From Ignavibacteriales bacterium (GTDB taxonomy: Bacteria > Bacteroidota > Ignavibacteria > UBA10030): DNA of 64,000 bases. Numbering within the stretch: the first letter of the stretch is position 1; the number at the start of each line of letters is the position of its first letter. Shown here in pieces: positions 1,976-25,123 of the stretch. Location: positions 11,293 through 75,292 of the forward strand of contig JACPUH010000037.1 of assembly GCA_016192345.1 (NCBI GenBank). The letters run 5' to 3'. The translations under genes were made by a program, and so were the position numbers. The notes beneath the pieces are model-generated. The model was not told the origin of the DNA, did no database searches, and was given only the letters and a program-made list of their open reading frames with translations.

Positions 1976-3457
1976 TCACTCCTTTGGGATCAGCACGATG
2001 GGTGGATGAGATCGCTGAGTCGCGAGCGAGCCGAGGATCATGCCAAGGGCGGCAAGGAAAAAACTGAGGAACCCCGACACATTGACGTCGATCAGGAAGT
2101 GCAGGTTCCCGGGGAGGGAATCGCGAAGCTGGCTCAGGATAAGAAATGCAAGCGGAGCGAAGGCGCCGAACCCGAGCGATGAGTAGGCCCCGACAATGTT
2201 GGCCTTCTTCCAATACAGGCCGAACGCGATGCACCCGAACGCGCCCGCCGAATACATCGCTCCCGTGATCGTAATATAGTGAAATGCCGTCGCCGGTAGC
2301 TCATACCAGAGCCCGAAGATCAGCATGAAAACCCCGATCGTCGTTGAGATGATCCTGCTCAACAGCACCGTTTGCTTCTCGGTCAGACCGTTTTTCCTTA
2401 CCGGGGCGATGATGTCCCGCGCGGCAACGGAGCTCCAGGCGAGCAGGTAGGCGCTGTAGGTGGACATCGAGGCGGCCAGCATGCCCGCCACCATCAGTCC
2501 GAGAAACCCGGACGGTACCACGGTTCCCAGCAACTTTGGCATGGCGGTGGTCGGATCGATCCCGGGGCCGAACATCGCCAGCGCAGCGATCCCCCAGAAC
2601 ATCGGGATCATATACCTCCCCCCCAGCGTTAATCCCGCCACGAGAAACAGCTTCCTTCCCACCTCCGGGTTCTCCGAGGCGAACGACTTGGAAGCGACTG
2701 GCTGGTAGAGCGCTGAGGCACCGATGCTCGCAATCAAGTACCAGAGGAGGAAGGTCCACCCGAAGCGGGGATTGGTCACCGGATTGACCCCCTGATCGCC
2801 GTACTGTCGGGTCACGGCCGTCGCGGCCTCGGTCAGGCTTACATGGTTCAGGATGAAAAGGGTCGCGATCAACATGCCGAGCGTCAGAACAACGAATTGC
2901 ATGAAGTCGGTGACGACCACCGAGAACATGCCTCCGAGCACGGTGTAACTCACGACGATGAGAAGCATCAGGATCATCACGGCGGCCAGCACTTCCGGAC
3001 CGAACCCCATGACCTCCGTCAGGAAAATTCCATCCATCCTCAGGAAGATCCCCATGTTCAATACGCCAGCAAGGAACAGGACGATCCCGCCGATGAGCCG
3101 GACTCCCTTTCCGTACCGAAGCTCATAGTATTCCGGGATCGTCATCACGCGGAGCCGCCGGAGCCCGGAGACGATGAAGCCCGTTTTCCCAATGACCAAG
3201 AACCCGATGAAACCGATGATGCCGAGGATGAAGCATGAAAATCCCGTGACATACCCGATCTCGCCCAGATACATGAACGTGACGATCCCGATCTCCGTGG
3301 CGATCAGCGTTGCCGACCCGAGGGCGACCTTCACGCGCCGGCCCGCGACGAAGTATCCCTCCATGTTCTCGACGTACTTCCTGGCCCAGAGCCCGACAGA
3401 GACCGTGAAGCCGAGATAGAAGAACAGGATGATCCAATCCAACACTTGAAAATTCAT
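1976..3457 (-). CDS. Sodium:solute symporter (SSS) family transporter
   Basis: About 13 hydrophobic segments; YFVAGR, TIPEYYELRYG, GGMFSVVVTDFMQ and AASMST motifs. Confidence 0.9.
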   Translation of the reverse strand: MNFQVLDWIILFFYLGFTVSVGLWARKYVENMEGYFVAGRRVKVALGSATLIATEIGIVTFMYLGEIGYVTGFSCFILGIIGFIGFLVIGKTGFIVSGLRRLRVMTIPEYYELRYGKGVRLIGGIVLFLAGVLNMGIFLRMDGIFLTEVMGFGPEVLAAVMILMLLIVVSYTVLGGMFSVVVTDFMQFVVLTLGMLIATLFILNHVSLTEAATAVTRQYGDQGVNPVTNPRFGWTFLLWYLIASIGASALYQPVASKSFASENPEVGRKLFLVAGLTLGGRYMIPMFWGIAALAMFGPGIDPTTAMPKLLGTVVPSGFLGLMVAGMLAASMSTYSAYLLAWSSVAARDIIAPVRKNGLTEKQTVLLSRIISTTIGVFMLIFGLWYELPATAFHYITITGAMYSAGAFGCIAFGLYWKKANIVGAYSSLGFGAFAPLAFLILSQLRDSLPGNLHFLIDVNVSGFLSFFLAALGMILGSLATQRSHPPIVLIPKE

Positions 3458-3513: not shown

Positions 3514-4743
3514 TTATTCTTTATAGAAAAGGTACCGGGAGCGGATCTCCCCGAAGCGTTCGAGTTCCGGAATCCATGAATCGCAGATCGCCTCGTGCGG
3601 GGCGTTGCGATCGAGCAGTTGACGGATCGACGAAGACCCTGTCAGGATGTCGAACCGTCGATGCCGGAACTCCGTTTCCTTCGGATGTGCGCGCTTGAAT
3701 GCCGCGAGGACGGCAATTCCCAGGCAGACGGGACGGACTTCATTTCGGTCGAGCGTGGTAAGGCGAATTCCACGGCATTTCTCCCCCTCATATTTGGGCT
3801 GGCTTGCCATCCCAGGAATTTCCTGCGGGACAAATCGCTCTGCGCTGAATGTCACGCCGGCCGTTTGGCATCCGGCCAACTCTTTGAGCACCTTCTCCGG
3901 GTCGACCCACGGTGCCCCGATCAACTGAAAGGGGGATAACGTCCCACGCCCCTCGGAAAGAGAGGTTCCTTCAACGAAACAAAGTCCCGGATACACCACA
4001 GCCGTATCGAGAGACTGCATATTGGGGGACGGGGCGATCCAGGGAAGCCCTGTCTCGTCGAACCACATCGAGCGTCGCCAGCCGTCCACCGGAACCACCT
4101 CCAGATCTGTCTTGAGATCCGTCGAGTGCCCGAACGAATGTTCTCCGATCCATCCCTCTTCATTCCAGAGCCGCGCCAGTTCCCCGATCGTCATCCCGTG
4201 CGTCACGGGAATGGGCATCCAGCCGACGAACGATTTCAACGGCTGTGTGCGGATGGGTCCGTCGAAGTGCAGGCCGCGGATCGGGTTGGGCCGGTCGAGG
4301 ATCACGAACGGTATCCCCTGTTCCGCAGCCGCCTCCATCATCAACGCTATCGTGGAAATGAAGGTGTAGAATCGCGCGCCGACGTCCTGGATATCGCACA
4401 CCAGCACGTCGATCCCTTCAAGCATCGCGCGGGTCGGCTTATGGATCTTCCCATAGAGGGAAAAGATCGGTACCCCGAGGTCGGGGTGGTCGATATGGTC
4501 GACGACCTTTCCATCCGGCGTATCGCCTGCGATCCCATGTTCCGGCCCGTACAGCGCCTTGATCGTGCAGAGCCCCGATTCCGCCACGACGTCGATGAGA
4601 AGGCGCCCGTCGGACAACCGCCCCGTATGGTTGGTGAGGATGCCGATGCGTTTGTTCCGGATGAGCTCCGGGGTATCGGACAGAAGGCGGTCGGCCCCCG
4701 TCCGGACAATGGTTGTTTGTTCCGAGACCGCTGGATTCTTCAT
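3514..4743 (-). CDS. namZ: Exo-beta-N-acetylmuramidase NamZ (DUF1343/YbbC)
   Basis: GILTNHTG, YGPEHG, DIQDVGARFYTF, LDRPNP, HGMTIGELA, PSPNM and SEGRGT motifs; no obvious signal peptide. Confidence 0.9.
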   Translation of the reverse strand: MKNPAVSEQTTIVRTGADRLLSDTPELIRNKRIGILTNHTGRLSDGRLLIDVVAESGLCTIKALYGPEHGIAGDTPDGKVVDHIDHPDLGVPIFSLYGKIHKPTRAMLEGIDVLVCDIQDVGARFYTFISTIALMMEAAAEQGIPFVILDRPNPIRGLHFDGPIRTQPLKSFVGWMPIPVTHGMTIGELARLWNEEGWIGEHSFGHSTDLKTDLEVVPVDGWRRSMWFDETGLPWIAPSPNMQSLDTAVVYPGLCFVEGTSLSEGRGTLSPFQLIGAPWVDPEKVLKELAGCQTAGVTFSAERFVPQEIPGMASQPKYEGEKCRGIRLTTLDRNEVRPVCLGIAVLAAFKRAHPKETEFRHRRFDILTGSSSIRQLLDRNAPHEAICDSWIPELERFGEIRSRYLFYKE

Positions 4744-4744: not shown

Positions 4745-5845
4745 TCAGACTTTGAGGTAAAGCTTTCGTCGGTGCATCCAGTAACAAAGCAGCCACCCGA
4801 CCAGGATGATCAAGGTGGAGTAGAGAAGGGAGCCGACAGTCGGCCCCGTGACGGCGGAAAAGGACCGGTAGAAATACCCGGTGAGCGAAGTTGTGGAACC
4901 GTCCCACGGGACTTTCCATGAAAGCATCACCCATCGGACGAACAATCCCGTCGCGACGTACACCGTAATGGCGTTCATGCCGTATACGACAAACGGGAAT
5001 CCGACGCGATGCAGTTGCCGTACTTCGATTACCCAGTAGAAAAGGAAGAACACGGCACATGCCCAACCCGCGGTATAGACCGCAAAGGAGGAGGACCAGA
5101 GGATCTTATTGAGGGGGACGATCGTATCCCATGCCAGGCCCAACACGATCCCTGCTATGCCGGCCAGACCAAAGGTATTCAGCAACACTGACGGACTGGT
5201 CTTCGGCATGAGGAACCGTCCTGCGTGTACGCCGAAGAGGACGCTGGAGAGTCCGGGGATCATGCTGATGATGGTTTCCTTATCCTCCGGGGCGAGAATG
5301 AAACTGTCAAGGTATTGCGCAGCGTTCACGTCCCTTTCGAACGATCCCTGGATGATGCCGGGCCCGCTCACGAATGCCAGGATGCCCCACCAAAGAAAAA
5401 GGGCCGAGACGGCGATGGTTGCCTGCCAGCCGCTCCGCAGACGCAGGAGCAGGAATGTGGCAAAATACAGGATGCCGATGCGCTGGAGAATTCCGAAGTG
5501 GAGTACCGGTTCGTTGAGGGAGGTGGATTTCAGGAACGCGCCCAGCAGGTACAGCAACAACGCCCGGCGGGCGGCAATGACGACGCTTTTCCAGAACGGG
5601 AATCCCTGTTCACGCTTCCTCGCGTCGCTGAAGGGCATCGCCATGCCAACGGCAAAGAGAAAGAAAGGGAAGATGAGGTCCGCGAAGGTGCACCCGTGCC
5701 ATTCGGCGTGTAGCAGGAGCCGCGGGACTATCGCCGGATCCCACGTCCCCGGATTGTTTACCAGGAGCATGCCCGCGATGGCAAACCCGCGGAAGGCATC
5801 GAGGGAGGTAAGTCGCTCAGAGGCTATGGAGGCTGGATTGCTCAC
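4745..5845 (-). CDS. Heparan-alpha-glucosaminide N-acetyltransferase-like (NagX/DUF5009-type) membrane protein
   Basis: RLTSLDAFRG, MLLVNNPG, HAEWHGCTFADLIFPFFLFAVGMA, GILQRI, PLNKILWSSSF and GMNAI motifs. Confidence 0.88.
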   Translation of the reverse strand: MSNPASIASERLTSLDAFRGFAIAGMLLVNNPGTWDPAIVPRLLLHAEWHGCTFADLIFPFFLFAVGMAMPFSDARKREQGFPFWKSVVIAARRALLLYLLGAFLKSTSLNEPVLHFGILQRIGILYFATFLLLRLRSGWQATIAVSALFLWWGILAFVSGPGIIQGSFERDVNAAQYLDSFILAPEDKETIISMIPGLSSVLFGVHAGRFLMPKTSPSVLLNTFGLAGIAGIVLGLAWDTIVPLNKILWSSSFAVYTAGWACAVFFLFYWVIEVRQLHRVGFPFVVYGMNAITVYVATGLFVRWVMLSWKVPWDGSTTSLTGYFYRSFSAVTGPTVGSLLYSTLIILVGWLLCYWMHRRKLYLKV

Positions 5846-7629
5846 GGGCGTGGAGAGAAAACCTCCAACTCCCGGATTGCATAGGGGGAACCTCCTCGTG
5901 GCCCTGTTGTCCCCTTCACCCCCTTGAAACGAAGGAAGCGTGTCTTGACCGGCGGGACGATCTCATGGTGCTCGACGCCCCCCGTTCCTCCACGCACTTC
6001 ACGGATCGCTCTCCATGTTGTCCCGTCCTGTGAGACCTGCAACTGGTAGTCCGTTCCATGGTTCTCGCCCCAAAGAATTCTGACGAGTCCGATCTCCTCG
6101 GATCGTTTCCATGAGAGTTGCAGCCAGTCGGGGTCCGCTTCGTCCTTTGTCATTTTCACCCCAGCGCGCCATCGTGTGTCGGTGTTGCCATCGATCGCCG
6201 ATGACGGAGTGAACGTTCCGGGTCCCCACAGGGCATTCAAAGGGCTGAAGGAGGAGGCCGTAGCAATTGCTCCGCGTGCAAGATTGGGAGAGGGAAGGAG
6301 GGAGTCCCGCTCAAGAAGGCGAACCATCATCAAAGCATAGGGCGGGACCTTCACGTCAAATTGCGCAGCGGGAATGGAAAGGTCGGGCAATCGCTCATTC
6401 TGCCGTTTCTCATCGAGTATCCAGGCTTCCGCCTTTGGATGCGGGTTGAAATGGCTCAACGCAATTTCAACGGGGATCGTTGCTCTTCTTTGTTTGTTGA
6501 TCAGGGCGAGTGTCAGTGTTTTCCCGGTGCGGCTTGCGTAGACCGAAACCGGGCCATTGGCGCCGGTGACCCGGAGGACCTCGCTTCCGAAAAGATTGAC
6601 AAACATGGGAAAGACGAAATAGGTGAACCGCGGAGTGTTGCGTCCATCGGAGGAGAGATAGCCAAAGTCCCCACCGCGCGGTGGATATTGATTATGCAGA
6701 GCCCAGAGGCAGCCGATATCGGTCCCGAGTTCCGCCATGGTGCCGAGCATGTCGGCCACCCAAAGGGCGTTGACAAGCTGTATCGTTTGCGGCCCTGGAC
6801 CTGTGTTGACCGAGTTGTACCCCACGTTGATCGTGAGAAGCTGTTTCGCTTTTTCCGGCCCTACAACCCGTTCGACCTCATCAACAAGCTGTTGGTGTAA
6901 CGCGCGAAAGGAACTGGTGGTTGCGAAAAGCGAGTCGTCGTTTTCCTTTCCCCCGTTTTGGGGAAAGTAGGTGTAGGTGAGCATATCGACATATTCGCCG
7001 GCGGCCCGCAGCACACGCTCCGTCCAGTTTTCCGGATGTGAACCAAGCGGCACGTTCGTCGCCACTTTGATCGTTGGATCGACGGACTTCATCGCTTTCA
7101 CAAACGAAATGTACTTTTTCGCATATTCCTCGGGGGGTGCATGCCCCTTTGCCCACCATCCCCATTGTTCATCCCCCACCTCCCAGAGTTTCACGCCGTA
7201 ACCCCGTTGGAGATTGCAGTATTGAACCCAGTCGGCGGCGAGCTCGGGAGATTCGTTGAAGTTGATGGTGATGAACGGCTCCGCCCCGGTTTCCCGGCAG
7301 AAGGCGATGTACTCGTCGGTGTCCATCTCGGTCGCGGGATTGTCGGGAGAATTCCACACATACCGGTCGGCCTGGTTCCCGCCGGGGTATTTGAGAAGCG
7401 TTGTCCCGGAAGCCTTGATTTTCGCGATCGCGTCCCGATCGGAGGTCAGAAGTATCTCCCCGGAGCGGCCGGGGAACAGCGATTCGTCCCAGTTGGCGGT
7501 GTTGATGCCGTAGAGCCATGGATTGATCGGCCTGACGGGTCTGGCCGCGTCCACCTCCACATGGACTGTCTGGGCGATCGTCGTAGAGACAGAGAGCAGG
7601 AAAAAGAGCGAGAGAGAGATGTTTTTCAT
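5842..7629 (-). CDS. Secreted clan-A-like glycoside hydrolase (GH51/GH79/GH44-like fold) with C-terminal F5/8 type C (CBM32-like) domain; catalytic residues atypical
   Basis: Signal peptide; INPWLYGIN, KYPGG..AD.Y.W, PFITIN..AADWV, WEVGDE; tail NLA..A.ASS..AIDGNTDTRW..WLQL..VSQDG..W..ELEV. Confidence 0.75.
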   Translation of the reverse strand: MKNISLSLFFLLSVSTTIAQTVHVEVDAARPVRPINPWLYGINTANWDESLFPGRSGEILLTSDRDAIAKIKASGTTLLKYPGGNQADRYVWNSPDNPATEMDTDEYIAFCRETGAEPFITINFNESPELAADWVQYCNLQRGYGVKLWEVGDEQWGWWAKGHAPPEEYAKKYISFVKAMKSVDPTIKVATNVPLGSHPENWTERVLRAAGEYVDMLTYTYFPQNGGKENDDSLFATTSSFRALHQQLVDEVERVVGPEKAKQLLTINVGYNSVNTGPGPQTIQLVNALWVADMLGTMAELGTDIGCLWALHNQYPPRGGDFGYLSSDGRNTPRFTYFVFPMFVNLFGSEVLRVTGANGPVSVYASRTGKTLTLALINKQRRATIPVEIALSHFNPHPKAEAWILDEKRQNERLPDLSIPAAQFDVKVPPYALMMVRLLERDSLLPSPNLARGAIATASSFSPLNALWGPGTFTPSSAIDGNTDTRWRAGVKMTKDEADPDWLQLSWKRSEEIGLVRILWGENHGTDYQLQVSQDGTTWRAIREVRGGTGGVEHHEIVPPVKTRFLRFKGVKGTTGPRGGSPYAIRELEVFSPRP

Positions 7630-7691
7630 GATGAGACCTGTACTACAGAGATATCAATATCATGATCAAAACCCTGGGTATGGTGGATTTG

Positions 7692-7799
7692 ATAATGTCA
7701 CCCCTTCGGGGTTGGCTCTCATACTATTGTCGAATGCTACCACAATTTCATCCCTTCGGGATTGGCTAACCCCCGAAAAAAACCCGAAGGGTTGAAATC
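7692..7799. repeat. REP-like cluster (CCCTTCGGG core): two direct copies and one inverted copy
   Basis: ATAATGTCACCCCTTCGGGGTTGGCT (7692-7717), ACAATTTCATCCCTTCGGGATTGGCT (7742-7767), inverted AACCCGAAGGGTTGAAATC (7781-7799). Confidence 0.7.
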
Positions 7800-7858
7800 G
7801 AATATGACCATGAAATTATTCAGGACTGCTGTACCATCATCGTTCGTGGCGGAGGAGT

Positions 7859-8791
7859 TCAATCAAAGGATTTCTTCATGATTTCGTGCCGGCGGAGGAC
7901 CTTGAGTCCTACCTTGTGATAGAAATCTTTTGCGCGTCCGGTTGTCCACGCGAGCCACAGGTTGTATTTCCCCTTCTTGCGCATTTGTTCCACCGTGTGG
8001 TAGTAGAGCATGGGTCCAAGACCCCGGCCGGCGTACGCCTCATCGATCCCGAAAGGACCGAACCGCTCATCCATGAAATGACTGAACCCCACGACATCGT
8101 GGTCCTTGAGTGCGACGAGAATCTCGTCGCACTCGGGGTTTTCCTTCAAGCGTTCCAGCGCGACGCGGAACAGGTCGCCCGGATAGTTTCTCCTGAGGAA
8201 TTCCAGGAGGCGCAAGGTGAGGGATGGGTGAAATACCTCGACCCGAAGGCCGGCCTTTTCCAGCTGGCGGAATCGTTCGTTCATCTCTTCGGGGATGGAG
8301 AAATCCATCAAGGGGCGTCCCATGCTGTAGACGCTCTGGTGCTTCGCATAACCGCATGTTTTGAGGAACGCATGCCCGTCCGCATAGGCATCGAGGTCGA
8401 CCCCGGGAATGAAATAGTTGGGGGTGTAATCCGACACATGGATTTCCCGAATCCCTTCCTTGCAAAGAAATGCCTCTGCCTGGCGCACCATGGTGGTGGC
8501 GATATCCTGCCGGCGCCATTCGGGATGGACGAAGAATGCGGTGATCCACCCCCGCCCAGGTTCCAGCCCGACATCGAAATACGGGTATCGTCTGCTCAGG
8601 CTGAGCAGGAATCCGACCGGCCTATCGTCCCCGACCGCCACCAGGCACCCGCGTTGGTCAAAATTCGGGTCCAGGATGATCTTTCGGCGGAAGGCGTTGG
8701 TGCTGATTTCATCGCGGGGGAGGCACATATTCCATAACTCGACAACACGCTCCTCATCCTCTGCATCATAAGGACGGATGGTATAAGCCAT
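7859..8791 (-). CDS. Tandem GNAT N-acetyltransferase (GlmA/MshD-like two-domain)
   Basis: Two acetyl-CoA motif-A regions (VHPEWRRQDIA; GIDEAYAGRGLG), linker YTPNYFIPGVD, FYHKVG. Confidence 0.88.
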   Translation of the reverse strand: MAYTIRPYDAEDEERVVELWNMCLPRDEISTNAFRRKIILDPNFDQRGCLVAVGDDRPVGFLLSLSRRYPYFDVGLEPGRGWITAFFVHPEWRRQDIATTMVRQAEAFLCKEGIREIHVSDYTPNYFIPGVDLDAYADGHAFLKTCGYAKHQSVYSMGRPLMDFSIPEEMNERFRQLEKAGLRVEVFHPSLTLRLLEFLRRNYPGDLFRVALERLKENPECDEILVALKDHDVVGFSHFMDERFGPFGIDEAYAGRGLGPMLYYHTVEQMRKKGKYNLWLAWTTGRAKDFYHKVGLKVLRRHEIMKKSFD

Positions 8792-8857: not shown

Positions 8858-9562
8858 TTACGGCAGTACATCGACGACGCGCTTTTTTTCGAACGGGTCG
8901 ATATCGAACGAAACGGCATACCGGACACCCGCTTCAGCGCCACGAACACGCGCAAGCGCTTCGTAGTAATCGAGATACGGAAAGGAGGAGATCTCTCCCT
9001 TGATGAATTCATACTGCGTGACGCACTCTTTCCACCGGGCCAGTTCCTTGCCGACATCGACATAGAGGTACGGCTTGAAGCCCTCGGGGTCTTCCCAGTT
9101 CTCGGTGTAGTAGATCCCCTTGATGCCCCGATGGCGCGGCAACGTGCTGACAACCCCCTCCAGCGAAGCAAGAAGGATCGCATCGTTCACGATGGCGTGG
9201 GTGTTCGCGTGGTCCTTGTGAATGCTCGTTCTCCAGTGCGTCACGATCCGGGTTGGTTGAACCTTGCGGATGACGTCCATCACGTAACGCCGCGTCCCCT
9301 CGTCGTTCGGCAACTCGCCGTCCTTGTACGGGGCGAACAAGGCTTCTCCTCCAATCACATCCGAGGCGGCGAGCGCCTCGCGGCGCTTCTGCTCACCGTA
9401 GGCTTGCGGGGAGAGTTTTGGATTCCCCCCCTCGCCGAGGGTAAGATGGAGGAGGACCACCCGGTCGCCGGCGGTCCGGTGCTTGAGAAGGACAGCGCCG
9501 CACGTGACTTCGATATCGCCGCAGTGAGCACCGATGGCAAGGATAGTGTTCTGTGGTTCCAT
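8858..9562 (-). CDS. PIG-L/LmbE family deacetylase
   Basis: AIGAHCGD, HLTLGEGG, RREA..A..VIG, DGEL, VTHW...HKDH. Confidence 0.88.
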   Translation of the reverse strand: MEPQNTILAIGAHCGDIEVTCGAVLLKHRTAGDRVVLLHLTLGEGGNPKLSPQAYGEQKRREALAASDVIGGEALFAPYKDGELPNDEGTRRYVMDVIRKVQPTRIVTHWRTSIHKDHANTHAIVNDAILLASLEGVVSTLPRHRGIKGIYYTENWEDPEGFKPYLYVDVGKELARWKECVTQYEFIKGEISSFPYLDYYEALARVRGAEAGVRYAVSFDIDPFEKKRVVDVLP

Positions 9563-9568: not shown

Positions 9569-10513
9569 TCAGAGTTCCTTCTTCAGGAGTGTAAAGCGTC
9601 GCGTCTGGGTGAATCCGAACTTGGAGTACACCTTTGCAGCCACATCATCCGTCCACATGACCCAGGCGTTATGATATCCCTGGTGACGCATCCGTTCCAG
9701 GGTCCGGGCGAGAAGGACTGTTCCGATGCCGCGTCCTTGGTGCAGGTCGCTCACGCCGAACGGCCCGAAATGGGACCCTTCGAACTGGCAGTACCCGATG
9801 ATCTCATCTCCGTGAGTGACGACCGTGATCTGGTCCGTCCGGAAGCCCCCCTCGGAAATTTTGCGCAGATTGCTTCGCTCCACCCGCACCCAATCCGTGG
9901 GCATTGTCCGCTCCAGGAACCCCAGGAAACGGACAAGATCGGTGCGACGATAGGGACGAATCTCAATGCCCCCGGCCAGCAGGGTTTGTTCCATCTGCAC
10001 GATCTTTTCGGGAACGGTAAAAAGGGCGATTGGCGCATCCATGCTGAGCGCTTCGTGGAAGGCTTCGTACTTGTGGGAAACGAAGAACTCGAGCAAAGGA
10101 GCGGAGGCTTGTTGGTCGATCCCCGGCGTGAAATATCCCGGGGGGTAGCCTGAAATCCGGCATTCCCTTTTGCCGAGCGCTCTGAACCGGTTTTCCAGCG
10201 TGGCGAGAAGCGGTGTTCCAACCTCCTTCAACATGGCGGTGGGGTGTACACCGAATGCGGTGATCCAGCACCGGGTCCCATCCGGGTCCGCGTCTCCAAG
10301 ATGCATCCGCCGCGCATACACGCCGAGGACGAAGCCGACAAGGTTGTCGTCCTTGCGCGCGAGGAGGAAGGTCGAGGGATCGAAGTTCTCGTCGAGGAGC
10401 ACGCGGCGCTCGAAGATGTCCTCCGCGATGGCATCGAGCGGAAGACTCTGTGCCCAGAGCGATAACACTTGCTCCCGATCGTTATCCGTATAGTGATTGA
10501 TGGAAATGTGCAT
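9569..10513 (-). CDS. Tandem GNAT N-acetyltransferase, paralog of 7859-8791
   Basis: Shares LLDENFD/ILDPNFD, WITAF.VHP, YF.PG.D and FGPFG with the paralog; HQGRGIG motif. Confidence 0.88.
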   Translation of the reverse strand: MHISINHYTDNDREQVLSLWAQSLPLDAIAEDIFERRVLLDENFDPSTFLLARKDDNLVGFVLGVYARRMHLGDADPDGTRCWITAFGVHPTAMLKEVGTPLLATLENRFRALGKRECRISGYPPGYFTPGIDQQASAPLLEFFVSHKYEAFHEALSMDAPIALFTVPEKIVQMEQTLLAGGIEIRPYRRTDLVRFLGFLERTMPTDWVRVERSNLRKISEGGFRTDQITVVTHGDEIIGYCQFEGSHFGPFGVSDLHQGRGIGTVLLARTLERMRHQGYHNAWVMWTDDVAAKVYSKFGFTQTRRFTLLKKEL

Positions 10514-11535
10514 TAATAACTTACGGCAAGTGAAAGATGATGCACGGCGCCGAAGATGCCGAAGGTCTGGTACGCGTAATCCGCACGCACCGGGAATTCC
10601 CCGACGTGATAACGAATCCCCAGTCCCGCCATGAAGCCCCGCTCGTCGTAGTTCGTCGCGTAGCCCGCGCGCGCCACAAGCACGTCCAAGATATTATATT
10701 CCGCCCCCAATTTCAGCTTTTCGTTGAAATCTCTCGGGTGACGCGACTCAAAACTCAGGATAAGGGTATTCCGTTGTTCCGGGTCGAAGAACAGGAGTGG
10801 TTCGATCGAGGCTCCGAAACTGACGGCGAACGGGAGAGGAAACGCCTCGTTTTCGTAACGGACCTCACGGGAGATATTTTGCAACGTCGCTCCAAACCGG
10901 ATCCCATTGTACAAGAAATCATAGTACGCGCCGATGTCGAACGCCAGGGCATTCTGGGCGTACGTCCGCTCGGAGATCGCAAGGCCTGGGTCGGAGAGAT
11001 TCGATCCGGTCGGTGCAACCCACGCCGAGCCCAGGTCCTGGCGGACATATTTCATATGAAGGCCGTAGGAAAAACGATCGCTCACCTTCTGGGAGAAGGC
11101 GGCCCCCAATGCATAGGCGGAAGGGGAGAAGGTGCCGGTCTCCACGAACCCTTCCTCATTCGCGGCCCGCCTGGTTCCATAGAACGTTCCGTAATCCATC
11201 ATGAGGAGACTGAACCCGACAACCCCGACTCCACGGATGTGGATGGCGGCAGCAGCCGAATTGTAGTTGATCTCCGCTATTCCCCTGGTGTGATTTAACG
11301 TCAGGTCGACATCGGAACGAATCCATCCCAGGAGGCTCGGATTCCAGAAAATCCCATTCGCATTCAGGGTCGACGTCACCCCGACGGTCCCGCGGCCGAT
11401 GACTTCCGCCGAAACCGGGTTTTCCAGGAACCGAAAACCGACCTGGGCTTTCTTCATGATTTGTGCGTTTGCATCAACCTGCAGAACGGAGAGCATCAGC
11501 AGAACAAGGCATGCGGAAGATGTTCGAATGCTCAT
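10513..11535 (-). CDS. PorV/PorQ-like (UPF0164/FadL-type) outer-membrane beta-barrel
   Basis: Start at 11535 after AAGGAGG; KKAQVGFRFL...GIFWNP, AFDIG, FPLP, GAEY, DYAY..FG.F; terminal aromatic residue. Confidence 0.8.
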   Translation of the reverse strand: MSIRTSSACLVLLMLSVLQVDANAQIMKKAQVGFRFLENPVSAEVIGRGTVGVTSTLNANGIFWNPSLLGWIRSDVDLTLNHTRGIAEINYNSAAAAIHIRGVGVVGFSLLMMDYGTFYGTRRAANEEGFVETGTFSPSAYALGAAFSQKVSDRFSYGLHMKYVRQDLGSAWVAPTGSNLSDPGLAISERTYAQNALAFDIGAYYDFLYNGIRFGATLQNISREVRYENEAFPLPFAVSFGASIEPLLFFDPEQRNTLILSFESRHPRDFNEKLKLGAEYNILDVLVARAGYATNYDERGFMAGLGIRYHVGEFPVRADYAYQTFGIFGAVHHLSLAVSY

Positions 11536-11590
11536 AGAAGCCTCCTTGAATTTCATGGCGGGCGAAGTGGAATATCGGGTGGTCATCGCC

Positions 11591-13708
11591 TCACCTTACG
11601 AGCACAAATTTGACGAACTGGTTGTCGAGGGGTTGTCCATCGAGCCCCTGGCCGTCCGTGACTGTAAGGATATAGATCCCGCTGCTGACGTATTGGTTGC
11701 CGTCCGTACGCTGGTCCCATTCATGATCCGCCGTTCCGTAATGTTCAATCATCTTGACGTGGTCGCCGGTCTCCGTGTAGATTCTCAGCGTGCACTTGAC
11801 GGGGAGGTTGACAAAAAGGATCTTGTTGGGTGTCCCGGAAAAACCGAGTCCCCCGGCGGCAACGGTGGCGGGATTGGGAACAACCCGAACTTTTTGTGAT
11901 TCGCTCAGGCCGGGCTTGAAGGAGGTGGCCGGTAGCTGGGACCGCGTGGCAAAGCGTGAGCTTTCGAGCTTCACGCCGTTCAAGAGGCCCGAAGAGTTTT
12001 GCGTTCCGTTGTCGACCGCGGTGACGGCATAATAATAATCGACTCCGCGCTGGACATTCCGATCAAAGTACGAAGTTACCGTCCGGTCGGTTGTCTCAAA
12101 CACCAGCTCCCAGCGGGCCTGGCTCCGTTGATCGAGAGGATCGTTCACGTAGTAGGCGCCCTGCTTTCGGTACACTCTCCATGCATACCAATCATCGGTG
12201 CCCGGTCCCGGGTCCGTGAAGTAATCCGGGCTGGGGTAGGACCAGGAGACCTCCACCCGGTCAGGCCCGGATTGTACATTGATGTCCGGAGGTGGAGGAG
12301 GAGAGGGGATCGTCAGGCCTTTGCTTAATTGATCCCAGGCCCAGTTGGCCCGGTCCATCGTTTTCCAGAGGGAATCGATCCCCTTCAGGACCCACGCGTT
12401 CTTCTCGGCATCGGAGATCTCGCTCTTGAACCAGCCCCGGCCGATGGAATCGGCGGCATTCCAGCCGATGCTCCCCGATCCGACCGCGTAGACGAAGGTA
12501 AGGGAGTCGTACCGGTTTTGGGCCTTGTTCTTGGTCAGTTCATAAGGTCCGACCGTAATAAAGCGCATCGGCCCCTTTTGAGGACGGGAAGCGAGCCCCG
12601 CTGTGACAGCGTCGGGGGGAAAGCGACCGCGGATATCGTCCCCGCGGTAGGTTAGCTTGAGGTTGACGTCACGGCGTCCCCAAAGGTCTTCGACAATACT
12701 TGCATGAGGCATCGCATAGGGTTGGGCCGGATCGTCGGTCTTCTGGTTGTGTGCTTTGTCGGCGTAGAGGAGGGCATACCCCGGTATCTGGGTGGAGTGG
12801 AGGAATCCTGTGACCCTGTCCGGATCCCCCATGTCATCCGACTTGCCGTTCGTGAAAACAGCTGCAAGGGAATTATCGGCATCCCAGTAATAAGCGACAA
12901 GCAGGGAATCACGCGATCGGTTCGGCACCAATTCCGATTTCCGGCTGAACCAACTGTCGAGATCGTCCTCGCCTTCGAAACCAAACGATCCGTTCGTGCT
13001 GTATTCACCCGCCTTGGAGGGGCCGAAGCTGAAGGCGATCGGCCACCAAAACCGGATCGTCTGATCCGGCAGTGTGTCTGTGGGGGCGGACGATTCGCGC
13101 GGGCGCTTGGTCTCTCCGGTGAACTTATGCGTTGCCTTCCAGATGAAAAAGTCGGCCAGATGCGGATTGCTGAACGCATAGATCTCCACGTGACTGCGGA
13201 GGCCGAATTGTCCCAGCACGTCCTCGAACTCGAGTTTAATGTCCGACCTCAGGTTCCTGTCGACGTGCCATCGGTACGGAGGGTTGAGAGGAATGCCGTC
13301 CACGACGATCTGCGGGGGACGATATCGGCGAACCTCAAAGGCCCAGTCGGTTTTTCCGGGATTCGTCAATGCGTCGCCGCGCGTGAACATCGGCTTCCGG
13401 ACACCGAACTCATCGATGATCCCGTTATCATCCAGCGAGAGGGGGTTGAAGATCTGGTACAGCATGTTCGATTGCCAGCGATCCTGCGGCCAGTGGAAGA
13501 TCTCGGTCTGCTGCGGATTGGCCCCGGCCAGCATCCAGCTGTACTGCGTTTGAAGCCCTCCCTCGCCGTTCAGCTTGTTCATCGTCATGCGGAGGTTCCC
13601 CACATCGATCAGCATCGGAAACGGGTCCATGTTGCGTTCCTGCGCGAGGAGTAACGCAGTGGGAAGGAGCAGGGAGGCAAGGCCGCTGATGGACAATATT
13701 CTTTTCAT
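11591..13708 (-). CDS. Secreted ~705-aa protein with FnIII-like domain and variant T9SS-like CTD
   Basis: Signal peptide; PSPPPPP..W..YR..Y.D..V.RG..YYY; CTD VRVVPNP..KILFVNLP..C..RIYTETG..W...SGIY..KFVLVR; paralog of 22914-25070. Confidence 0.8.
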   Translation of the reverse strand: MKRILSISGLASLLLPTALLLAQERNMDPFPMLIDVGNLRMTMNKLNGEGGLQTQYSWMLAGANPQQTEIFHWPQDRWQSNMLYQIFNPLSLDDNGIIDEFGVRKPMFTRGDALTNPGKTDWAFEVRRYRPPQIVVDGIPLNPPYRWHVDRNLRSDIKLEFEDVLGQFGLRSHVEIYAFSNPHLADFFIWKATHKFTGETKRPRESSAPTDTLPDQTIRFWWPIAFSFGPSKAGEYSTNGSFGFEGEDDLDSWFSRKSELVPNRSRDSLLVAYYWDADNSLAAVFTNGKSDDMGDPDRVTGFLHSTQIPGYALLYADKAHNQKTDDPAQPYAMPHASIVEDLWGRRDVNLKLTYRGDDIRGRFPPDAVTAGLASRPQKGPMRFITVGPYELTKNKAQNRYDSLTFVYAVGSGSIGWNAADSIGRGWFKSEISDAEKNAWVLKGIDSLWKTMDRANWAWDQLSKGLTIPSPPPPPDINVQSGPDRVEVSWSYPSPDYFTDPGPGTDDWYAWRVYRKQGAYYVNDPLDQRSQARWELVFETTDRTVTSYFDRNVQRGVDYYYAVTAVDNGTQNSSGLLNGVKLESSRFATRSQLPATSFKPGLSESQKVRVVPNPATVAAGGLGFSGTPNKILFVNLPVKCTLRIYTETGDHVKMIEHYGTADHEWDQRTDGNQYVSSGIYILTVTDGQGLDGQPLDNQFVKFVLVR

Positions 13709-13716
13709 GGCAACTC

Positions 13717-15081
13717 CTATCGTAAGACGACCATAGTTCGGGCGAGCGTAAACCCCCCGCCGGTGAGTCGATACAGGTACACGCCGCTCGGGAGGGTCGC
13801 GGATGAAACCGTCACCTCGTAGGATCCGGGCTGGTGGGTAAATTCAGCGAGCGTATCGACCTCGCGGCCAAGAGGATCGTAGAGCCGGAGCGTGTACGCT
13901 CCCCCCCGGGTAATATGATACCGGATCCGGGTTTGCGCGTTAAAGGGGTTTGGATAATTCTGTGACAACTCGAATGCGAGAGGAGGAGTTTCCCCCACCA
14001 TGATGGGAACGGAGGTTGTTGCCTTCAGTGCCGCACCCAGACTCGCCAGGAGCGGTTGTTGACCGTTCATGTAATCCTGACCGAGCGCCCAGAGAATGAC
14101 ACCGCCGAGCGACTGGTTTTTGAGATACGCCGCCTTCTCCGCGATTGAAGCCGAGTCATCGTAACTGATGACCCGCGTCTGGAGAGAGTTCACAAGGAAG
14201 GGTGTGCGCGTCGGCAGGTCCCAGTGTCGTGTCCACCCCTGTTGAAGTAAGGGGGCGATGTTGATGTACGTAAGCTGTGAGGCACCCGTGCTTGGACCGA
14301 ACAGGGTTGTGGCATTGAATTGCCATCCATAGAAGGGGATTCCGAAGAGGAGTTTTTCTGCCGGGATTCCCTTGGCCCGGTAGTGGGCCATGGAATTATC
14401 GATCCATCCCTGATCGGTCGTCGCAGCGGTTCCGTAGAGCGCCGAATTCGGCCCTGCCTTGGTCGTCCAACTGCCGTAGAAGTCGTAGGTCATGATCCCG
14501 ATCCAGTCGAGGACTTCCTTCATCACGGTCCAATCGTACCGGCCACTCCAGTCTCCCGAGGGGGCGGCAATGCTGAGCGAGAGCGGTGGCATGACCGTGT
14601 TGAACGCTGCGCGCAGTTCCTGAAACAAGAGGGTGGCATTCGGCCGGTCCGCCGGGGCCGGATACTCCCAGTCGATGTCGGCGCCGTCATAGCCGTAGGT
14701 CTGACAAAAATTTTTCAGGTTGGAGACAAACCGCGTACGGGCAGTCGGATCGGCGACCATGGTTGCAAAGCGGGGCGTCCGCACCAGATCCCATCCGCCG
14801 ACCGAAATGACAACCTTGACGCCATGCTGATGCGCGGTTTGAATCAGCTCGGGATAATGAGCGAAGCCGCTCATCTCGAGAGTACCATCCGCAAACGGAA
14901 AGATGAACGCGTGGGCGATGTGCGTCAGATGCTGGTACTGTACCGCCGTGTGGGGATAGGACCCACGGATCCAACTCGGGTAATATCCCAGGACCATGCG
15001 CTCCCCCGCGGTTGCCGGACGCAGGAAGGCGGCGGCAAGGAACAGGAGGGAGAAGAAGAATCGTGTCGATGAACAGCGCAT
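13717..15081 (-). CDS. GH18 chitinase/endo-N-acetylglucosaminidase with T9SS type-A CTD
   Basis: Start 15081; THIAHAF, SVGGW, intact DGADIDWEYP, MTYDF, GIPFYG, ISYDD, GVILW; QNYPNPFN CTD. Confidence 0.92.
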   Translation of the reverse strand: MRCSSTRFFFSLLFLAAAFLRPATAGERMVLGYYPSWIRGSYPHTAVQYQHLTHIAHAFIFPFADGTLEMSGFAHYPELIQTAHQHGVKVVISVGGWDLVRTPRFATMVADPTARTRFVSNLKNFCQTYGYDGADIDWEYPAPADRPNATLLFQELRAAFNTVMPPLSLSIAAPSGDWSGRYDWTVMKEVLDWIGIMTYDFYGSWTTKAGPNSALYGTAATTDQGWIDNSMAHYRAKGIPAEKLLFGIPFYGWQFNATTLFGPSTGASQLTYINIAPLLQQGWTRHWDLPTRTPFLVNSLQTRVISYDDSASIAEKAAYLKNQSLGGVILWALGQDYMNGQQPLLASLGAALKATTSVPIMVGETPPLAFELSQNYPNPFNAQTRIRYHITRGGAYTLRLYDPLGREVDTLAEFTHQPGSYEVTVSSATLPSGVYLYRLTGGGFTLARTMVVLR

Positions 15082-15089
15082 GGGATACC

Positions 15090-18000
15090 TTAGAAATTTA
15101 CCCGGAGTCCGAGCATGACGCGCCGGGGGTTCAGGAAGATGGGGGCGTCCCACCATCCTGTTTTGATGTGGCCGTCGTCGGATTTCCATTGTCCCCATTT
15201 GTCGCTCCCCCCCTGGTGTGGCAGACGCAGGGAAGCTTTATATTCGTCATACTGTGTGCGGAGCATGTTTTCGGGGATGAGCCACTTGTTGTTGGTAAGA
15301 TTCTTGATCGTGACGACGAACTCCATGGAGGCTCCACCGAGCCGGAACGCTTTCGAGCCGCGGAAATCCATATTCCAGAAATCCATGGCGTCGACGTAGA
15401 TCCGGTTCTTGACGTCGGCCTCTTCCGGGTTCCAGAGGATCCGGCCGCCGTCACGCCACTCAAAGAAGAAATTCAGGTACATTTCTCCGAGCCAGTACAC
15501 GCCGCCGAGGTTCGGGCCGAAATCGACCGGCGAGTGGATGTTGAGGTTGAAGTTTGCTCTCGGGCGCGGCTCCGTGTTGAAGAGGTTTGCCGACCGCTCT
15601 TCGTCCTTCGCATCGAGCCGATTCTCATACACCCGGGCGAGCCCGGACTGCCCGTAGCTCTGCAGCATATAATCAACCATGCTCGTGAAGGTGATCCAAC
15701 TGCCGAGCGGTCGCTCGAGGCGCACTTCGATGCCCCGCACGTCGTGGTAGGCGTCGGGGAAATATGCCCGCACGATGTTGTCCCGATAATAGTTGATGAA
15801 CTGGCGGCTGAGCGGTTCGTTCCGCACATCCTTGTAGTACGCCGTCACGTTGAAGAGGAACTCTCCAAGGAAGAGCTGTTCGTATCCGAATTCGTAGGAG
15901 ATCGTCTTGCCCATGGTCAGGCCGGGAGTGGGAAGCAGGGTGGCCGCCAGGTCGATCGTCTGATTATACATGAAGGATGTCGCGGGGCGCTGGTAGAAGT
16001 GTCCGTAGTTGAAGTAGAGCTTGCTGCTCTCGGTGATGGGGAAGGAGACCCCCAGGCGGGGAGAAGCGAAGAGCTGCACTTCATTCTCTGTCTGCGGCCA
16101 GCCCGGAGGATTTTCCAGCAGGTCGCGGAAGAGCAGCCAGCGTTCATAGCTTCCCCATGCGCCGTCAAGGTTCTGATAGGTGTTGTTGTACAGTTCCGGG
16201 TAGTGATCGTCGACGGGCAGACCGACTTCGAACCCCTTTTTCATCGGGTTCAGGTAATCGAGGCGGATGCCCGCGTTCAGGATAATCCCGTCAAACTCGA
16301 GCTTATCCTGTACATAGAGCCCCATTTCGAGGGGTGTGGCGGTGTAGTACTGCCAGAGGTCCGGCGTGAAGGCCATTTGAGCCTGTAACCAGGTGCCGGT
16401 GTAGACAAAGAGCTTCTGGAGGCGGGCGGAGAACCCCGCTTCCAATTGATGATGCCGGCCCAACTGTGCGGTCACGTCAGCTTTGAACTGGCCGACCATG
16501 GAGTAGGAGGAATCCACACGCTGCAGGCCCCCGTACAGCCGCCACATGTTGAGAGCATCGCTCCCGGGATTCGTGGAGGCGTTCGGGCTGCCGCCGATCG
16601 GAACGTTCGGGTATCGAATGTCGGGAAGGTTGGGGTTCCTGTTTGGCAGGGTGAACCACGCGTCGGCGCCTGAGGTGTCCAGAGCGAAGGGTGAAAGCGT
16701 TTGATCGGTGTACCCCACCTGAAAGTCGAGCGTGTAGAAAGCCCGCCGGTCAAATGTGTGCGTCAGTTTTGCGCCCCCCACGAAGTACCGCTGGTTGTAA
16801 AACTGCAGCCGGCTCTTGTTGAACATCTGCCAGAGGTTGTCCCCCGCCAGGAGCCGGGCTTGCTGGCGGACGGAGGATTCCGTGCTGTTGAGGAAGTTAA
16901 AACTTGACGAGGCGTCAACGAGGGCCCCGCCGTAGGATGTGGTCTGTCCGCCGCTGACCGTCTCCACGTTGGCATAGAGTCCATTGATGGAGAGGCGCAT
17001 ATCGCTGGCGATTTGTGTCGTCAGTTTGAGCTGGGTGTTCCAGTCGACATAGTTGTTGCGTGGCCCGAGCGGGAACGCGAGCTGGGAATCTTCGTACTTG
17101 AATCCCAGCAGGAAGGTGGTGTTCTCCGCGTACGGTCCGATCAACGGAAGGCCGGCCCCCGGGAACGGACCGGTGATGCTTCCTTCGACGAAGAGATCCG
17201 GTTTGTCGGCATGCCGGTACTGCGGATGTTGGCGCTTCCACAGCTCGAGCTTGTCCAAGGTGTCGAGGTTGCGATCCGGGGTAAAACGGTTAGCCCAGCC
17301 CTGGAAATTGCGGAACTCGATCGGGACGGTTGTATCCCCGGGGGTGACCCCTTTCAGGGCGTACTCCCCTGCGAAGATCCTGTAGATCCATGACTCATCG
17401 CTCCAGGGGTTCGTACCGAAGTATTTTTTCTGTGCAGGGATTTGATCGACTTTCAACGCAACGGTATAGCGGTCGCGATACCCGTCTTTCGTGACGACAT
17501 TCAGAAGCCCCGACCGGATGCCGCCATACTTGGCCTGGAACCCGCCGGTCAACACCTGGATCTCCTCCACGGTCGTCGAGTTGAGGGCGAGATACGAATT
17601 CTCCGAACGGGGATCCTGCAACGAGATGCCGTCGATGCGGACGTCGGTCTCGCGGATGGCGCCTCCCCGCACACTCAAGCCGTTTCCTTCGGCTCCGCTA
17701 ACCAACTCGACACCTTTCACCCGGTTTACAAATTCATCCATACGTGTCACCGGCATCTGTTCCAGGCGCGAGGTCATGATCACTTCCTGAGTCCCGGCAA
17801 CGTCCGGTTTGATCATTTCGCGTTTTGCCGTCACGACCACCTGTTCGAGTTCGATCGCCGTCATCGCCAGCGTAAAATCGATCGTGACGGTGCGATCGAG
17901 TTCCACGCGGATCGGTCGCTGCGCCGTCGATGTGAATCCAACCATGCTGGCCTTCACGACATAGGTGCCGGGGGGGACGTTCAGGATGAAATAATAGCCG

Positions 18001-18248
18001 TTGACGTCGGTTGCACCTCCGAGCTGCCGGCCCAGCGATACCTCCGATCCGTCCGGTAAGATCGAATGGGTGATCAGCACGTTGGCTCCGGGGAGCGGTT
18101 CACCGGTCTCTCCGTCGGTCACACGCCCGGTCAATTTCCCGCTCGAGGCGTTCAAGAGGGTCGCGAAGACTGTCAGGAAGAGGACGGTTAACAAAAGTCT
18201 ACCCATGACAGTGGCAAACGAGCTTGGCTGGATCATACAATACCCCAT
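15090..18248 (-). CDS. TonB-dependent receptor (CarboxypepD_reg-like + plug + barrel); start may be 18236 or 18206
   Basis: GKLTGRVTD..GEPLPGANV; plug VRGG...TGGFQAKYG..SGLLNVVTK; YVQDKLEF, SPRLGVSFPI, NPRR..LG.RVNF. Confidence 0.9.
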   Translation of the reverse strand: MGYCMIQPSSFATVMGRLLLTVLFLTVFATLLNASSGKLTGRVTDGETGEPLPGANVLITHSILPDGSEVSLGRQLGGATDVNGYYFILNVPPGTYVVKASMVGFTSTAQRPIRVELDRTVTIDFTLAMTAIELEQVVVTAKREMIKPDVAGTQEVIMTSRLEQMPVTRMDEFVNRVKGVELVSGAEGNGLSVRGGAIRETDVRIDGISLQDPRSENSYLALNSTTVEEIQVLTGGFQAKYGGIRSGLLNVVTKDGYRDRYTVALKVDQIPAQKKYFGTNPWSDESWIYRIFAGEYALKGVTPGDTTVPIEFRNFQGWANRFTPDRNLDTLDKLELWKRQHPQYRHADKPDLFVEGSITGPFPGAGLPLIGPYAENTTFLLGFKYEDSQLAFPLGPRNNYVDWNTQLKLTTQIASDMRLSINGLYANVETVSGGQTTSYGGALVDASSSFNFLNSTESSVRQQARLLAGDNLWQMFNKSRLQFYNQRYFVGGAKLTHTFDRRAFYTLDFQVGYTDQTLSPFALDTSGADAWFTLPNRNPNLPDIRYPNVPIGGSPNASTNPGSDALNMWRLYGGLQRVDSSYSMVGQFKADVTAQLGRHHQLEAGFSARLQKLFVYTGTWLQAQMAFTPDLWQYYTATPLEMGLYVQDKLEFDGIILNAGIRLDYLNPMKKGFEVGLPVDDHYPELYNNTYQNLDGAWGSYERWLLFRDLLENPPGWPQTENEVQLFASPRLGVSFPITESSKLYFNYGHFYQRPATSFMYNQTIDLAATLLPTPGLTMGKTISYEFGYEQLFLGEFLFNVTAYYKDVRNEPLSRQFINYYRDNIVRAYFPDAYHDVRGIEVRLERPLGSWITFTSMVDYMLQSYGQSGLARVYENRLDAKDEERSANLFNTEPRPRANFNLNIHSPVDFGPNLGGVYWLGEMYLNFFFEWRDGGRILWNPEEADVKNRIYVDAMDFWNMDFRGSKAFRLGGASMEFVVTIKNLTNNKWLIPENMLRTQYDEYKASLRLPHQGGSDKWGQWKSDDGHIKTGWWDAPIFLNPRRVMLGLRVNF

Positions 18249-22833: not shown

Positions 22834-22913
22834 GGGAAATATCCAATGTTTGATGTGTTTCGATGCCGGGCCGTTCCCCGTGTCGGAAAGCCGGGAGAAT
22901 TCCGGCATTTCAC

Positions 22914-25070: not shown

Positions 25071-25086
25071 TGTATCCTTTAGTCTC

Positions 25087-25123
25087 AAAATATTTTTCTT
25101 GGTGCCTTCGCGACTTTGTGGCA
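25087..25123. repeat. Intergenic repeat family A (GCCACAAAG...), copy 1
   Basis: 33/37 identical to 42029-42065. Confidence 0.75.

Follow-up and report, generated by a model that had tools for sequence, protein, structure and literature searches.

Gene locus and domain architecture

The window analysed here is a 64,000-nucleotide stretch of an Ignavibacteriales genome (assembly GCA_016192345.1, contig JACPUH010000037.1, positions 11,293 to 75,292 of the forward strand). On its minus strand, from ~18248 to 1976, it carries a row of 11 genes headed by a TonB-dependent receptor and closed by a symporter (Table 1). Within this row lies a gene, single-copy in its own genome, for a protein that we refer to as P0001. 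It belongs to a clade related to glycoside hydrolase family 51 (GH51) in which the acid/base motif reads Asp-Glu (hereafter D-E) instead of the canonical Asn-Glu (N-E) and in which the nucleophile Glu is gone. That this GH51-lineage clade has changed its mechanism is a prediction well supported by sequence, structure and genomic context.

The Pfam scan assigned to P0001 a CBM32 domain only, plus a sub-threshold GH79 match, and found no Por_Secre_tail, i.e., no C-terminal sorting domain of the type IX secretion system (T9SS). The CBM32 is closest in sequence to the chitosan-binding modules of Paenibacillus chitosanase/glucanase (PDB 4zy9, 2rv9, and 4zxe; E ~1e-8), and in fold it superimposes on 4zxe with a VIA-align Z of 21.5 and a root-mean-square deviation (rmsd) of 1.4 Å over 129 residues. 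As CBM32 specificities vary widely, a possible affinity for amino-sugar oligomers is only a lead. Homologues of P0001 are named “hypothetical protein” or “discoidin domain-containing protein” in their sources or, in one case at the Joint Genome Institute (JGI), “alpha-L-arabinofuranosidase.”

Table 1. P0001, its domains and motifs, and the other genes of the row (positions in the window).
Feature	Position	Strand	Evidence
P0001, GH51-like D-E protein, coding sequence	5842..7629	minus	Open reading frame (ORF) of 595 aa; ORF list and translation
Signal peptide, N-terminal, aa ~1-20, MKNISLSLFFLLSVSTTIAQ	7570..7629	minus	Translation; cleavage site by eye
(beta/alpha)8 catalytic barrel, aa ~21-350	6580..7569	minus	AlphaFold2 secondary structure, Foldseek, VIA-align, hhalign
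WEVGDEQ, aa 149-155, end of strand beta-4; D153-E154	7165..7185	minus	Motif location
INVGYNS, aa 267-273, strand beta-7; G270	6811..6831	minus	Motif location
Beta-sandwich as in GH51, aa ~351-445	6295..6579	minus	AlphaFold2 strands 350-440; VIA-align GH51 span 21-440
CBM32 / F5_F8 type C domain, C-terminal, aa 453-592	5854..6273	minus	Pfam PF00754, E 5.4e-17
TonB-dependent receptor, head of row	15090..18248	minus	Pfam CarboxypepD_reg and Plug
GH18 chitinase-like, T9SS tail, intact DGADIDWE	13717..15198	minus	Pfam GH18 7.2e-65, Por_Secre_tail
705-aa protein, no Pfam match, operon-conserved	11591..13708	minus	Pfam scan
PorV/PorQ-family outer-membrane protein	10513..11586	minus	NCBIfam PorV_fam 1.5e-50
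Second tandem-GNAT, ~30-35% identical paralogue of the GNAT at 7859..8791	9569..10513	minus	Pfam
PIG-L/LmbE-family de-N-acetylase	8858..9562	minus	Pfam PIG-L 3.6e-23
Tandem-GNAT, GlmA-like	7859..8791	minus	Pfam Acetyltransf_1, two stretches; PDB 5kf1, E 2e-16
Terminator-like hairpin, in the 229-nt gap 5' of the P0001 gene	7781..7793	minus	Consensus scan, pattern match only
NagX/HGSNAT-like membrane protein; start overlaps the P0001 stop by 4 nt	4745..5845	minus	Pfam HGSNAT_cat 1e-10
NamZ-like (GH171, DUF1343)	3514..4743	minus	Pfam NamZ_N 4.3e-79, NamZ_C 7e-44; PDB 4k05 6.4e-66
Sodium:solute symporter, last gene of unit	1976..3457	minus	Pfam SSF 3.4e-29

Fold and catalytic residues

P0001 is GH51-like in both fold and homology, with the barrel and beta-sandwich of that family. 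A phmmer search of PDB sequences ranked GH51 arabinofuranosidases at the top (3s2c, E 7.6e-24; 4atw and 3ug3, ~8e-24) and aligned V-K-L-W-E-V-G-D-E of P0001 with V-K-F-W-G-I-G-N-E of GH51. The AlphaFold2 model, built from a 50-sequence alignment, has a mean predicted local distance difference test (pLDDT) score of 84.1 and a predicted template modelling (pTM) score of 0.74. With this model, Foldseek returned GH51 structures first (E 1.6e-27), and VIA-align against 48,161 representative chains matched 3ug3 with Z 37.0 and an rmsd of 2.5 Å over 396 residues. GH79, GH44, GH30, GH39, and GH5 followed GH51, and the top structural matches all belong to clan GH-A. Matches in the ESM Atlas were generic GH51/GH39/GH79-like clusters only.

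For residue mapping, an 18-sequence alignment of the D-E clade was compared by hhalign with five canonical GH51-like proteins chosen for their D-E-W-N motif, which gave a probability of 100% and an E of 4.8e-55 over 416 columns. Both canonical proteins that were scanned with Pfam (P0280 and P0257) contain the Alpha-L-AF_C domain (PF06964). The curated GH51 models respond poorly to P0001 itself: PF06964 is not matched at E <=0.01, PF22848 is not listed in the Pfam scan although a precomputed list does show a match, and NCBIfam ArfA scores 56 bits, far below its cut-off of 625.

Enzymes of clan GH-A carry catalytic carboxylates on strands 4 and 7, an Arg on beta-2, a His/Tyr on beta-6, and a Trp on beta-8. 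The Asn ahead of the acid/base Glu binds O2 of the sugar, the nucleophile lies beneath C1, and the Arg and His at the positions equivalent to 80 and 220 of P0001 hold and tune the nucleophile. An earlier note on this sequence had placed WEVGDEQ at the W..GNE acid/base site and INVGYNS on the nucleophile strand. Both phmmer and hhalign confirm the first placement, with E154 on the canonical acid/base Glu and D153 on the Asn of G-N-E; the Glu is present and invariant, and Asn is replaced by Asp across the whole D-E clade. The second placement holds for the strand, since hhalign sets V269-G270-Y271-N272 on D-E-W-N, while the vacated position is Gly270 and not the Tyr or Asn of GYN. In the AlphaFold2 model, strand beta-4 (148-152) runs directly into D153-E154, and strand beta-7 (265-271) has G270 close to its end, which puts these residues at the clan-A catalytic sites. 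The structural alignment to GH51 that the note had proposed (here hhalign, with the VIA-align fold match to 3ug3) thus returns Asp at the Asn site and Gly at the nucleophile site.

The same alignment sets K80 on the beta-2 Arg, T220 on the beta-6 His, F222 on the beta-6 Tyr, and A45 on the beta-1 Glu of canonical GH51. P0001 does not show the clan GH-A signature in full. It has the fold, the beta-4 Glu, and the beta-8 Trp (W309), but the D-E clade lacks the beta-7 Glu, mostly carries Lys for Arg80, has Thr for His220, and varies between Phe and Tyr at position 222.

Conservation across the D-E clade

Conservation was assessed in an alignment of 270 sequences to the catalytic-domain profile, comprising P0001, 119 close homologues from a 90%-clustered collection, and the best 150 of 3,902 HMMER matches from an exhaustive scan of 1.84 billion representatives. 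Both motifs are covered in 255 of the 270 rows, and 134 of these read x-D-E (132 GDE, one HDE, and one ADE). Not one of the 134 has an Asp or Glu at aligned positions 269-271, and at position 270 there is Gly in 132 rows and Ser in the other two, which bears out the loss of the nucleophile Glu suspected in the earlier note. The other 121 rows read N-E or S-E, and 119 of them retain the nucleophile Glu or acid, either in the aligned column (103) or, through alignment slippage, as T-E or D-E a few residues upstream (16). The two exceptions are P0248, whose alignment is truncated, and P0263, which reads V-T-K-T.

In a FastTree phylogeny restricted to rows of 300 or more aligned columns (131 rows), all 20 D-E tips form one clade, with support of 0.33 at its base and 0.93 at the parent node. 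Judged from these sequences, the pairing of D-E with nucleophile loss is one ancient switch that was then strictly maintained, and not repeated independent covariation. Because the D-E rows are a single clade, we do not treat their count of 134/134 as a statistical test; the covariation that the note had proposed to look for is there in the numbers but reflects a single event. In this tree, the sister of the D-E clade is an N-E group on a long branch. We did not rely on this placement, and “nearest” below refers to E-value and identity.

Relative to the N-E rows, the whole D-E clade has Asp for Asn153, Gly or Ser for Glu270, and a residue other than Gly for Gly125; the change of Val192 to Asn is nearly universal. 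Position 220 is Thr in 128 of 134 D-E rows (Thr/Ser/Asn overall) versus His in 117 of 126 N-E rows, and position 80 is Lys in 129/134 versus Arg in 107/109. Residues common to both groups are W47, D48, D88, W92, N123, W149, E150, E154, D215, E229, D231, N272, S273, W309, N313, D321, and Y322. The residues supporting the nucleophile were thus remodelled along with its loss, and the clade retained the acid/base and most of the sugar pocket. All 137 rows that bear the pair keep D153, E154, and E150 without exception, down to 27-33% identity (P0159 and P0138), a conservation beyond chance and as would be expected of catalytic residues.

This pattern bears on the possibility, also raised in the earlier note, that P0001 is a dead enzyme, i.e., a periplasmic protein that binds glycans without cleaving them and has its role in delivering or sensing amino-sugar oligomers. 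Loss of the canonical nucleophile and of its supporting Arg and His, the presence of a CBM32, and the frequency of binding proteins in carbohydrate operons would all suit such a role. However, dead enzymes usually lose residues of the kind that are strictly retained here (the acid/base Glu, the new Asp, and E150), and most of the pocket is nearly invariant down to ~27% identity. Binding would not need the gain of Asp from Asn, and a separate binding module is already there. We therefore consider a purely binding protein improbable.

The column comparison also addresses whether P0001 might be an ordinary retaining clan-A glycosidase (an arabinofuranosidase, glucanase, or exo-glucosaminidase) that draws its nucleophile from another strand or loop. 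The barrel loops do hold conserved acids (D48, D88, E229, D231, and D321), the active-site loops are modelled with low confidence, and one homologue bears the JGI arabinofuranosidase name. Yet these acids are just as conserved in N-E relatives, where the beta-7 Glu is still in place, and so cannot count as replacements that compensate for its loss. In the comparison of D-E with N-E rows, D153 is the only acidic residue that occurs throughout the clade and is specific to it. Two further points tell against such an enzyme: the beta-1 Glu, which binds arabinose in GH51, aligns with Ala45, and the operon is without pentose or glucan genes. A retaining enzyme of this kind seems to us quite improbable. 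Two specific candidates were rejected, namely a compensating acid elsewhere (outside the close relatives, D86 and E49 are not common) and Tyr271 acting as nucleophile in the manner of sialidases (of the 134 rows, seven have Phe and two have Trp at this position).

Relationship to N-E relatives

The N-E relatives nearest to P0001 by E-value (1e-59 to 1e-40; P0144-P0154, P0162, and P0235) bear CBM11, CBM30, or a GH5 cellulase domain. CBM11 and CBM30 bind cellulose and beta-glucans, and the combination of CBM30/CBM11 with GH51 is the architecture of Fibrobacter succinogenes Cel51A. These modules indicate a gluco-configured beta-1,4 ancestor, and from the sequence relationships the D-E clade looks derived from a beta-glucan-active GH51-like branch and not from arabinofuranosidases. 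The N-E sisters, with the motifs W-D, G-N-E, H-x-Y, and T-E-W/N-N-S, are 30-37% identical to P0001 across the barrel and share most of its pocket residues, including N272 and S273 beside the nucleophile position. They differ in retaining the Asn, the nucleophile Glu, Arg80, and His220, and in their modules, which are beta-glucan/cellulose binders where P0001 has a CBM32.

The amino-sugar operon

The neighbourhood of P0001 is conserved. We compared 58 related loci from Ignavibacteria, Kryptoniota, and Bacteroidota metagenome-assembled genomes (one labelled Opitutales), in which the P0001 homologue is down to 42% identical. These loci were picked by peptide patterns that include WEVGDEQW and are thus D-E by construction, and many of the contigs are too short to hold all the genes. 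By tblastn, the GNAT pair was found in 50 loci, PIG-L in 44, NagX in 40, the symporter in 39, NamZ in 35, the PorV-like protein in 30, the 705-aa protein in 26, and GH18 in 17 (many contigs being too short to reach it). All of the neighbour matches listed lie on the same strand as the P0001 homologue.

The neighbours that can be assigned to a family all appear to act on 2-amino or 2-acetamido sugars, and by its gene content the operon is concerned with the N-acetylation state of beta-linked amino sugars. The N-acetyl-amino-sugar locus proposed in the earlier note is borne out by the GH18, GNAT pair, PIG-L, NagX-like, and NamZ families. For the PIG-L protein, the PDB yields matches to BshB1 (6.4e-14) and to diacetylchitobiose deacetylase (1.1e-5). 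The GlmA-like GNATs are predicted to acetylate glucosamine or glucosaminides. The structure matched by the GNAT next to P0001, 5KF1, is identified in PMC10936415 as the glucosamine N-acetyltransferase GlmA. The two GNATs flank the cytoplasmic PIG-L deacetylase here and in most related loci; acetyltransferases beside a deacetylase in a catabolic operon are puzzling.

NamZ of B. subtilis releases terminal N-acetylmuramic acid (MurNAc), and PMC8054146 describes a sequential exo-lytic degradation of peptidoglycan in which the partners of NamZ are NagZ, an exo-beta-N-acetylglucosaminidase, and AmiE, an amidase. The NamZ homologue of the row has no visible signal peptide, though its best PDB match is titled “exported protein.” For NagX, PMC9007349 proposes from fitness data that it moves acetyl from cytoplasmic acetyl-CoA to periplasmic glucosamine (GlcN), and relates it to the putative MurNAc transporter TfMurT. 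The NagX-like protein encoded next to P0001 is covered over its full length by NCBIfam NagX_SO_3504 at 155 bits, below the cut-off of 480.

The terminator-like hairpin in the gap upstream of the P0001 gene suggests that this gene may head a sub-operon of P0001, NagX, NamZ, and the symporter. Beyond the hairpin, the gap (7630-7858, minus strand) holds two copies of a motif with a palindrome-like CCCGAAGGG, followed by TGA-AATT/CATT (by eye); these repeats may bind a regulator or form small hairpins. At the head of the row, the longest GH18 ORF shares ~108 nt with the end of the TonB-dependent receptor gene (15090), and an internal Met just ahead of the signal-peptide-like MRCSSTRFFFSLLFLAAAFL is the more likely start.

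Proposed mechanism

From the observed residue replacements, their clade-wide conservation, the fold of the predicted model, and the conserved operon, we infer a catalytic activity, its substrate, an exo or endo mode of action, a mechanism, and a coupling to NagX. With a probability of about 0.55, P0001 is a periplasmic beta-N-acetylglucosaminide hydrolase that uses substrate-assisted catalysis. Its substrate would be N-acetylglucosamine (GlcNAc) at subsite -1 in chito-oligosaccharides and/or peptidoglycan fragments. In this proposal, a beta-glucan-active GH51 branch of clan GH-A was adapted to beta-linked 2-acetamido sugars. The general acid/base would still be E154, at the end of beta-4, which would protonate the leaving group, and the replacement of Glu by Gly270 on beta-7 would free room under C1. 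The N-acetyl carbonyl of the substrate could then attack C1 and give an oxazoline/oxazolinium intermediate. D153, which replaces the O2-binding Asn, would orient and polarise the acetamido N-H and stabilise the oxazolinium, as does the Asp of the GH20 D-E pair, and E154 would then activate water. Acetamido participation has the merit of explaining Asn to Asp and Glu to Gly together.

The CBM32 would hold amino-sugar oligomers, and the NagX-like transacetylase, whose gene is translationally coupled, would restore the acetyl group on GlcN residues that P0001 cannot cleave. An enzyme that needs the acetamido group of its substrate should stall at de-N-acetylated residues, and a coupled transacetylase would lift this block. 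Mechanistically, the clade would have converged on the solution of GH20 and GH18 through two point changes plus remodelled nucleophile-support residues; a partial GH20 motif in the absence of GH20 homology would make this convergence.

P0001 could also be an active glycosidase that does without a nucleophile by other means: attack by O6 to give a 1,6-anhydro sugar in the manner of lytic transglycosylases, inversion with water or phosphate accommodated by Gly270, or use of D153 as base or nucleophile. The retained acid/base, the vacated nucleophile site, and the new polar residues K80, N192, T220, and N125 are compatible with these chemistries, and anhydro-sugar formation fits the peptidoglycan context provided by NamZ. 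They explain the change from Asn to Asp less directly than acetamido participation does, however. Phosphorolysis is at odds with the signal peptide, as the known sugar phosphorylases are to our knowledge cytoplasmic, and an Asp beside bound phosphate would be unfavourable. The O6 option probably still proceeds via the oxazolinium and so overlaps with substrate assistance. Altogether, we regard these other chemistries as rather unlikely.

Several observations weigh against substrate-assisted hexosaminidase activity. The conserved acids E229, D231, D321, D48, and D88, which are shared with N-E relatives, might reach the alpha-face of C1, and the active-site loops are the weakest parts of the AlphaFold2 model (pLDDT 59 at 151-160 and 61 at 271-280). 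Tyr271, a possible analogue of the GH20 Tyr, is replaced by Phe or Trp in the nine rows given above and so is not essential. P0001 does not match the GH20 motif (H/N)-x-G-(A/C/G/M)-D-E-(A/I/L/V) (PMC13436218), nor does Pfam find a PF00728 match that would indicate GH20 homology. Full-length GH20 proteins occur in 10 of the 16 genomes that carry the D-E gene (16 carriers among 201 sampled genomes of the class), and the genome of the window has four GH3 genes. No MurQ etherase scores above its family cut-off in this genome (94% complete; best match 36 bits), which makes a role of the operon in MurNAc catabolism less likely. Finally, the D-E rows form a single clade with weak support at its base, which reduces the statistics to one event. 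The switch to substrate-assisted chemistry put forward in the earlier note is thus partly supported, by the residue mapping, the co-occurrence of the two changes, the lack of another clade-specific acid, and the operon, with the qualification that the D-E set is one clade.

The GH20 and GH3 distribution also led us to drop the idea of a non-orthologous displacement of GH20, as there is no mutual exclusion. The D-E enzyme is an addition, not a replacement.

Comparison with known enzymes and implications

Among known systems, GH51 (Thermotoga 3ug3/3s2c, Geobacillus 1pz3, and the endoglucanase branch) is the best match of P0001 by sequence, profile, and fold, with a (beta/alpha)8 barrel, a C-terminal beta-sandwich, and the acid/base Glu on beta-4 in a W-x-x-G-x-E context. 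P0001 departs from GH51 in the changes of Asn to Asp, nucleophile Glu to Gly, beta-2 Arg mostly to Lys, beta-6 His to Thr, and beta-1 Glu to Ala, as well as in its CBM32 and its amino-sugar operon setting.

GH20, GH18, and GH84 enzymes have their acid after beta-4, a neighbouring Asp, and no enzyme nucleophile. P0001 appears to resemble GH20 (also GH18, GH84, GH85, and GH123) in having an adjacent Asp-Glu directly after beta-4 of a TIM barrel (D153-E154 after strand 148-152), in lacking a canonical nucleophile, and in a setting of periplasmic amino-sugar degradation. P0001 has no relationship to GH20 in sequence or family, its structural neighbours are all clan-A, and its equivalent of the acetamido-binding Tyr is not strictly conserved.

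A parallel for the coupling to NagX may be found in lysosomal heparan sulfate degradation, where HGSNAT acts before NAGLU. There, as would be the case for NagX and P0001, a transmembrane N-acetyltransferase is paired with a glycosidase that requires the acetyl group. P0001 differs from NAGLU in glycosidase family and in anomeric configuration.

We found no description of a D-E-type GH51-like enzyme or of a clan-A substrate-assisted hexosaminidase in the literature, in a coverage with few subscription journals and without CAZy. We would put at even odds that the D-E clade is the first natural clan GH-A (GH51-lineage) family with 2-acetamido participation in place of a double-displacement nucleophile. 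If so, it would be a natural case of a glycosidase changing mechanism within a conserved fold and would add a new mechanistic class to clan GH-A. Replacement of the nucleophile by Gly is the change used to engineer glycosynthases; here it would have been fixed by evolution and compensated by the substrate. A cellulase-type scaffold would have been turned into a chitin/peptidoglycan hydrolase that works alongside an acetyl-restoring membrane transacetylase, which would merit a new CAZy family or subfamily and would correct a systematic mis-annotation. The role of NagX-type transacetylases beside a glycosidase would become testable, and such enzymes would be candidates for transglycosylation with oxazoline donors. 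Ignavibacteria and Kryptoniota are abundant in groundwater and sediments, and the locus would define a conserved operon in both for scavenging amino sugars from chitin, chitosan, or peptidoglycan.

Other features of the window and genome

Many genomes of the class encode proteins of ~800-950 aa whose match to the GH20 Pfam model (~40-90 bits) is confined to its first ~240-265 positions, and the sole GH20-type match in the genome of the window (G000:C88:2094-2732) is of this partial kind. Such proteins may represent a GH20-like family that has diverged.

Upstream of the amino-sugar operon, at 21769-28287 (minus strand), a second module combines a TonB-dependent receptor, a protein of ~700 aa with no assigned family, and a PorV-like protein; it is comparable to that at 10513-18248 (minus strand) and is followed by an IPT/TIG protein and a T9SS-tailed protein. 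From its gene content, this may be a recurring polysaccharide-uptake module of an Ignavibacteria style, unlike SusC/SusD.

A thiamine pyrophosphate (TPP) riboswitch is found at 52770-52875 (plus strand; Rfam RF00059, 72.9 bits), and directly 3' of it, at 52890-57548 (plus strand), are genes for a TonB-dependent receptor, thiamin pyrophosphokinase, and a sodium:solute symporter. The region 52770-57548 looks like a riboswitch-controlled operon for thiamine uptake or salvage by way of an outer-membrane receptor. The window also encodes, at 30001-34497 (minus strand), a T9SS-tailed protein of 1,498 aa with ASH, Cep192-like, and HYDIN-like Ig domains.

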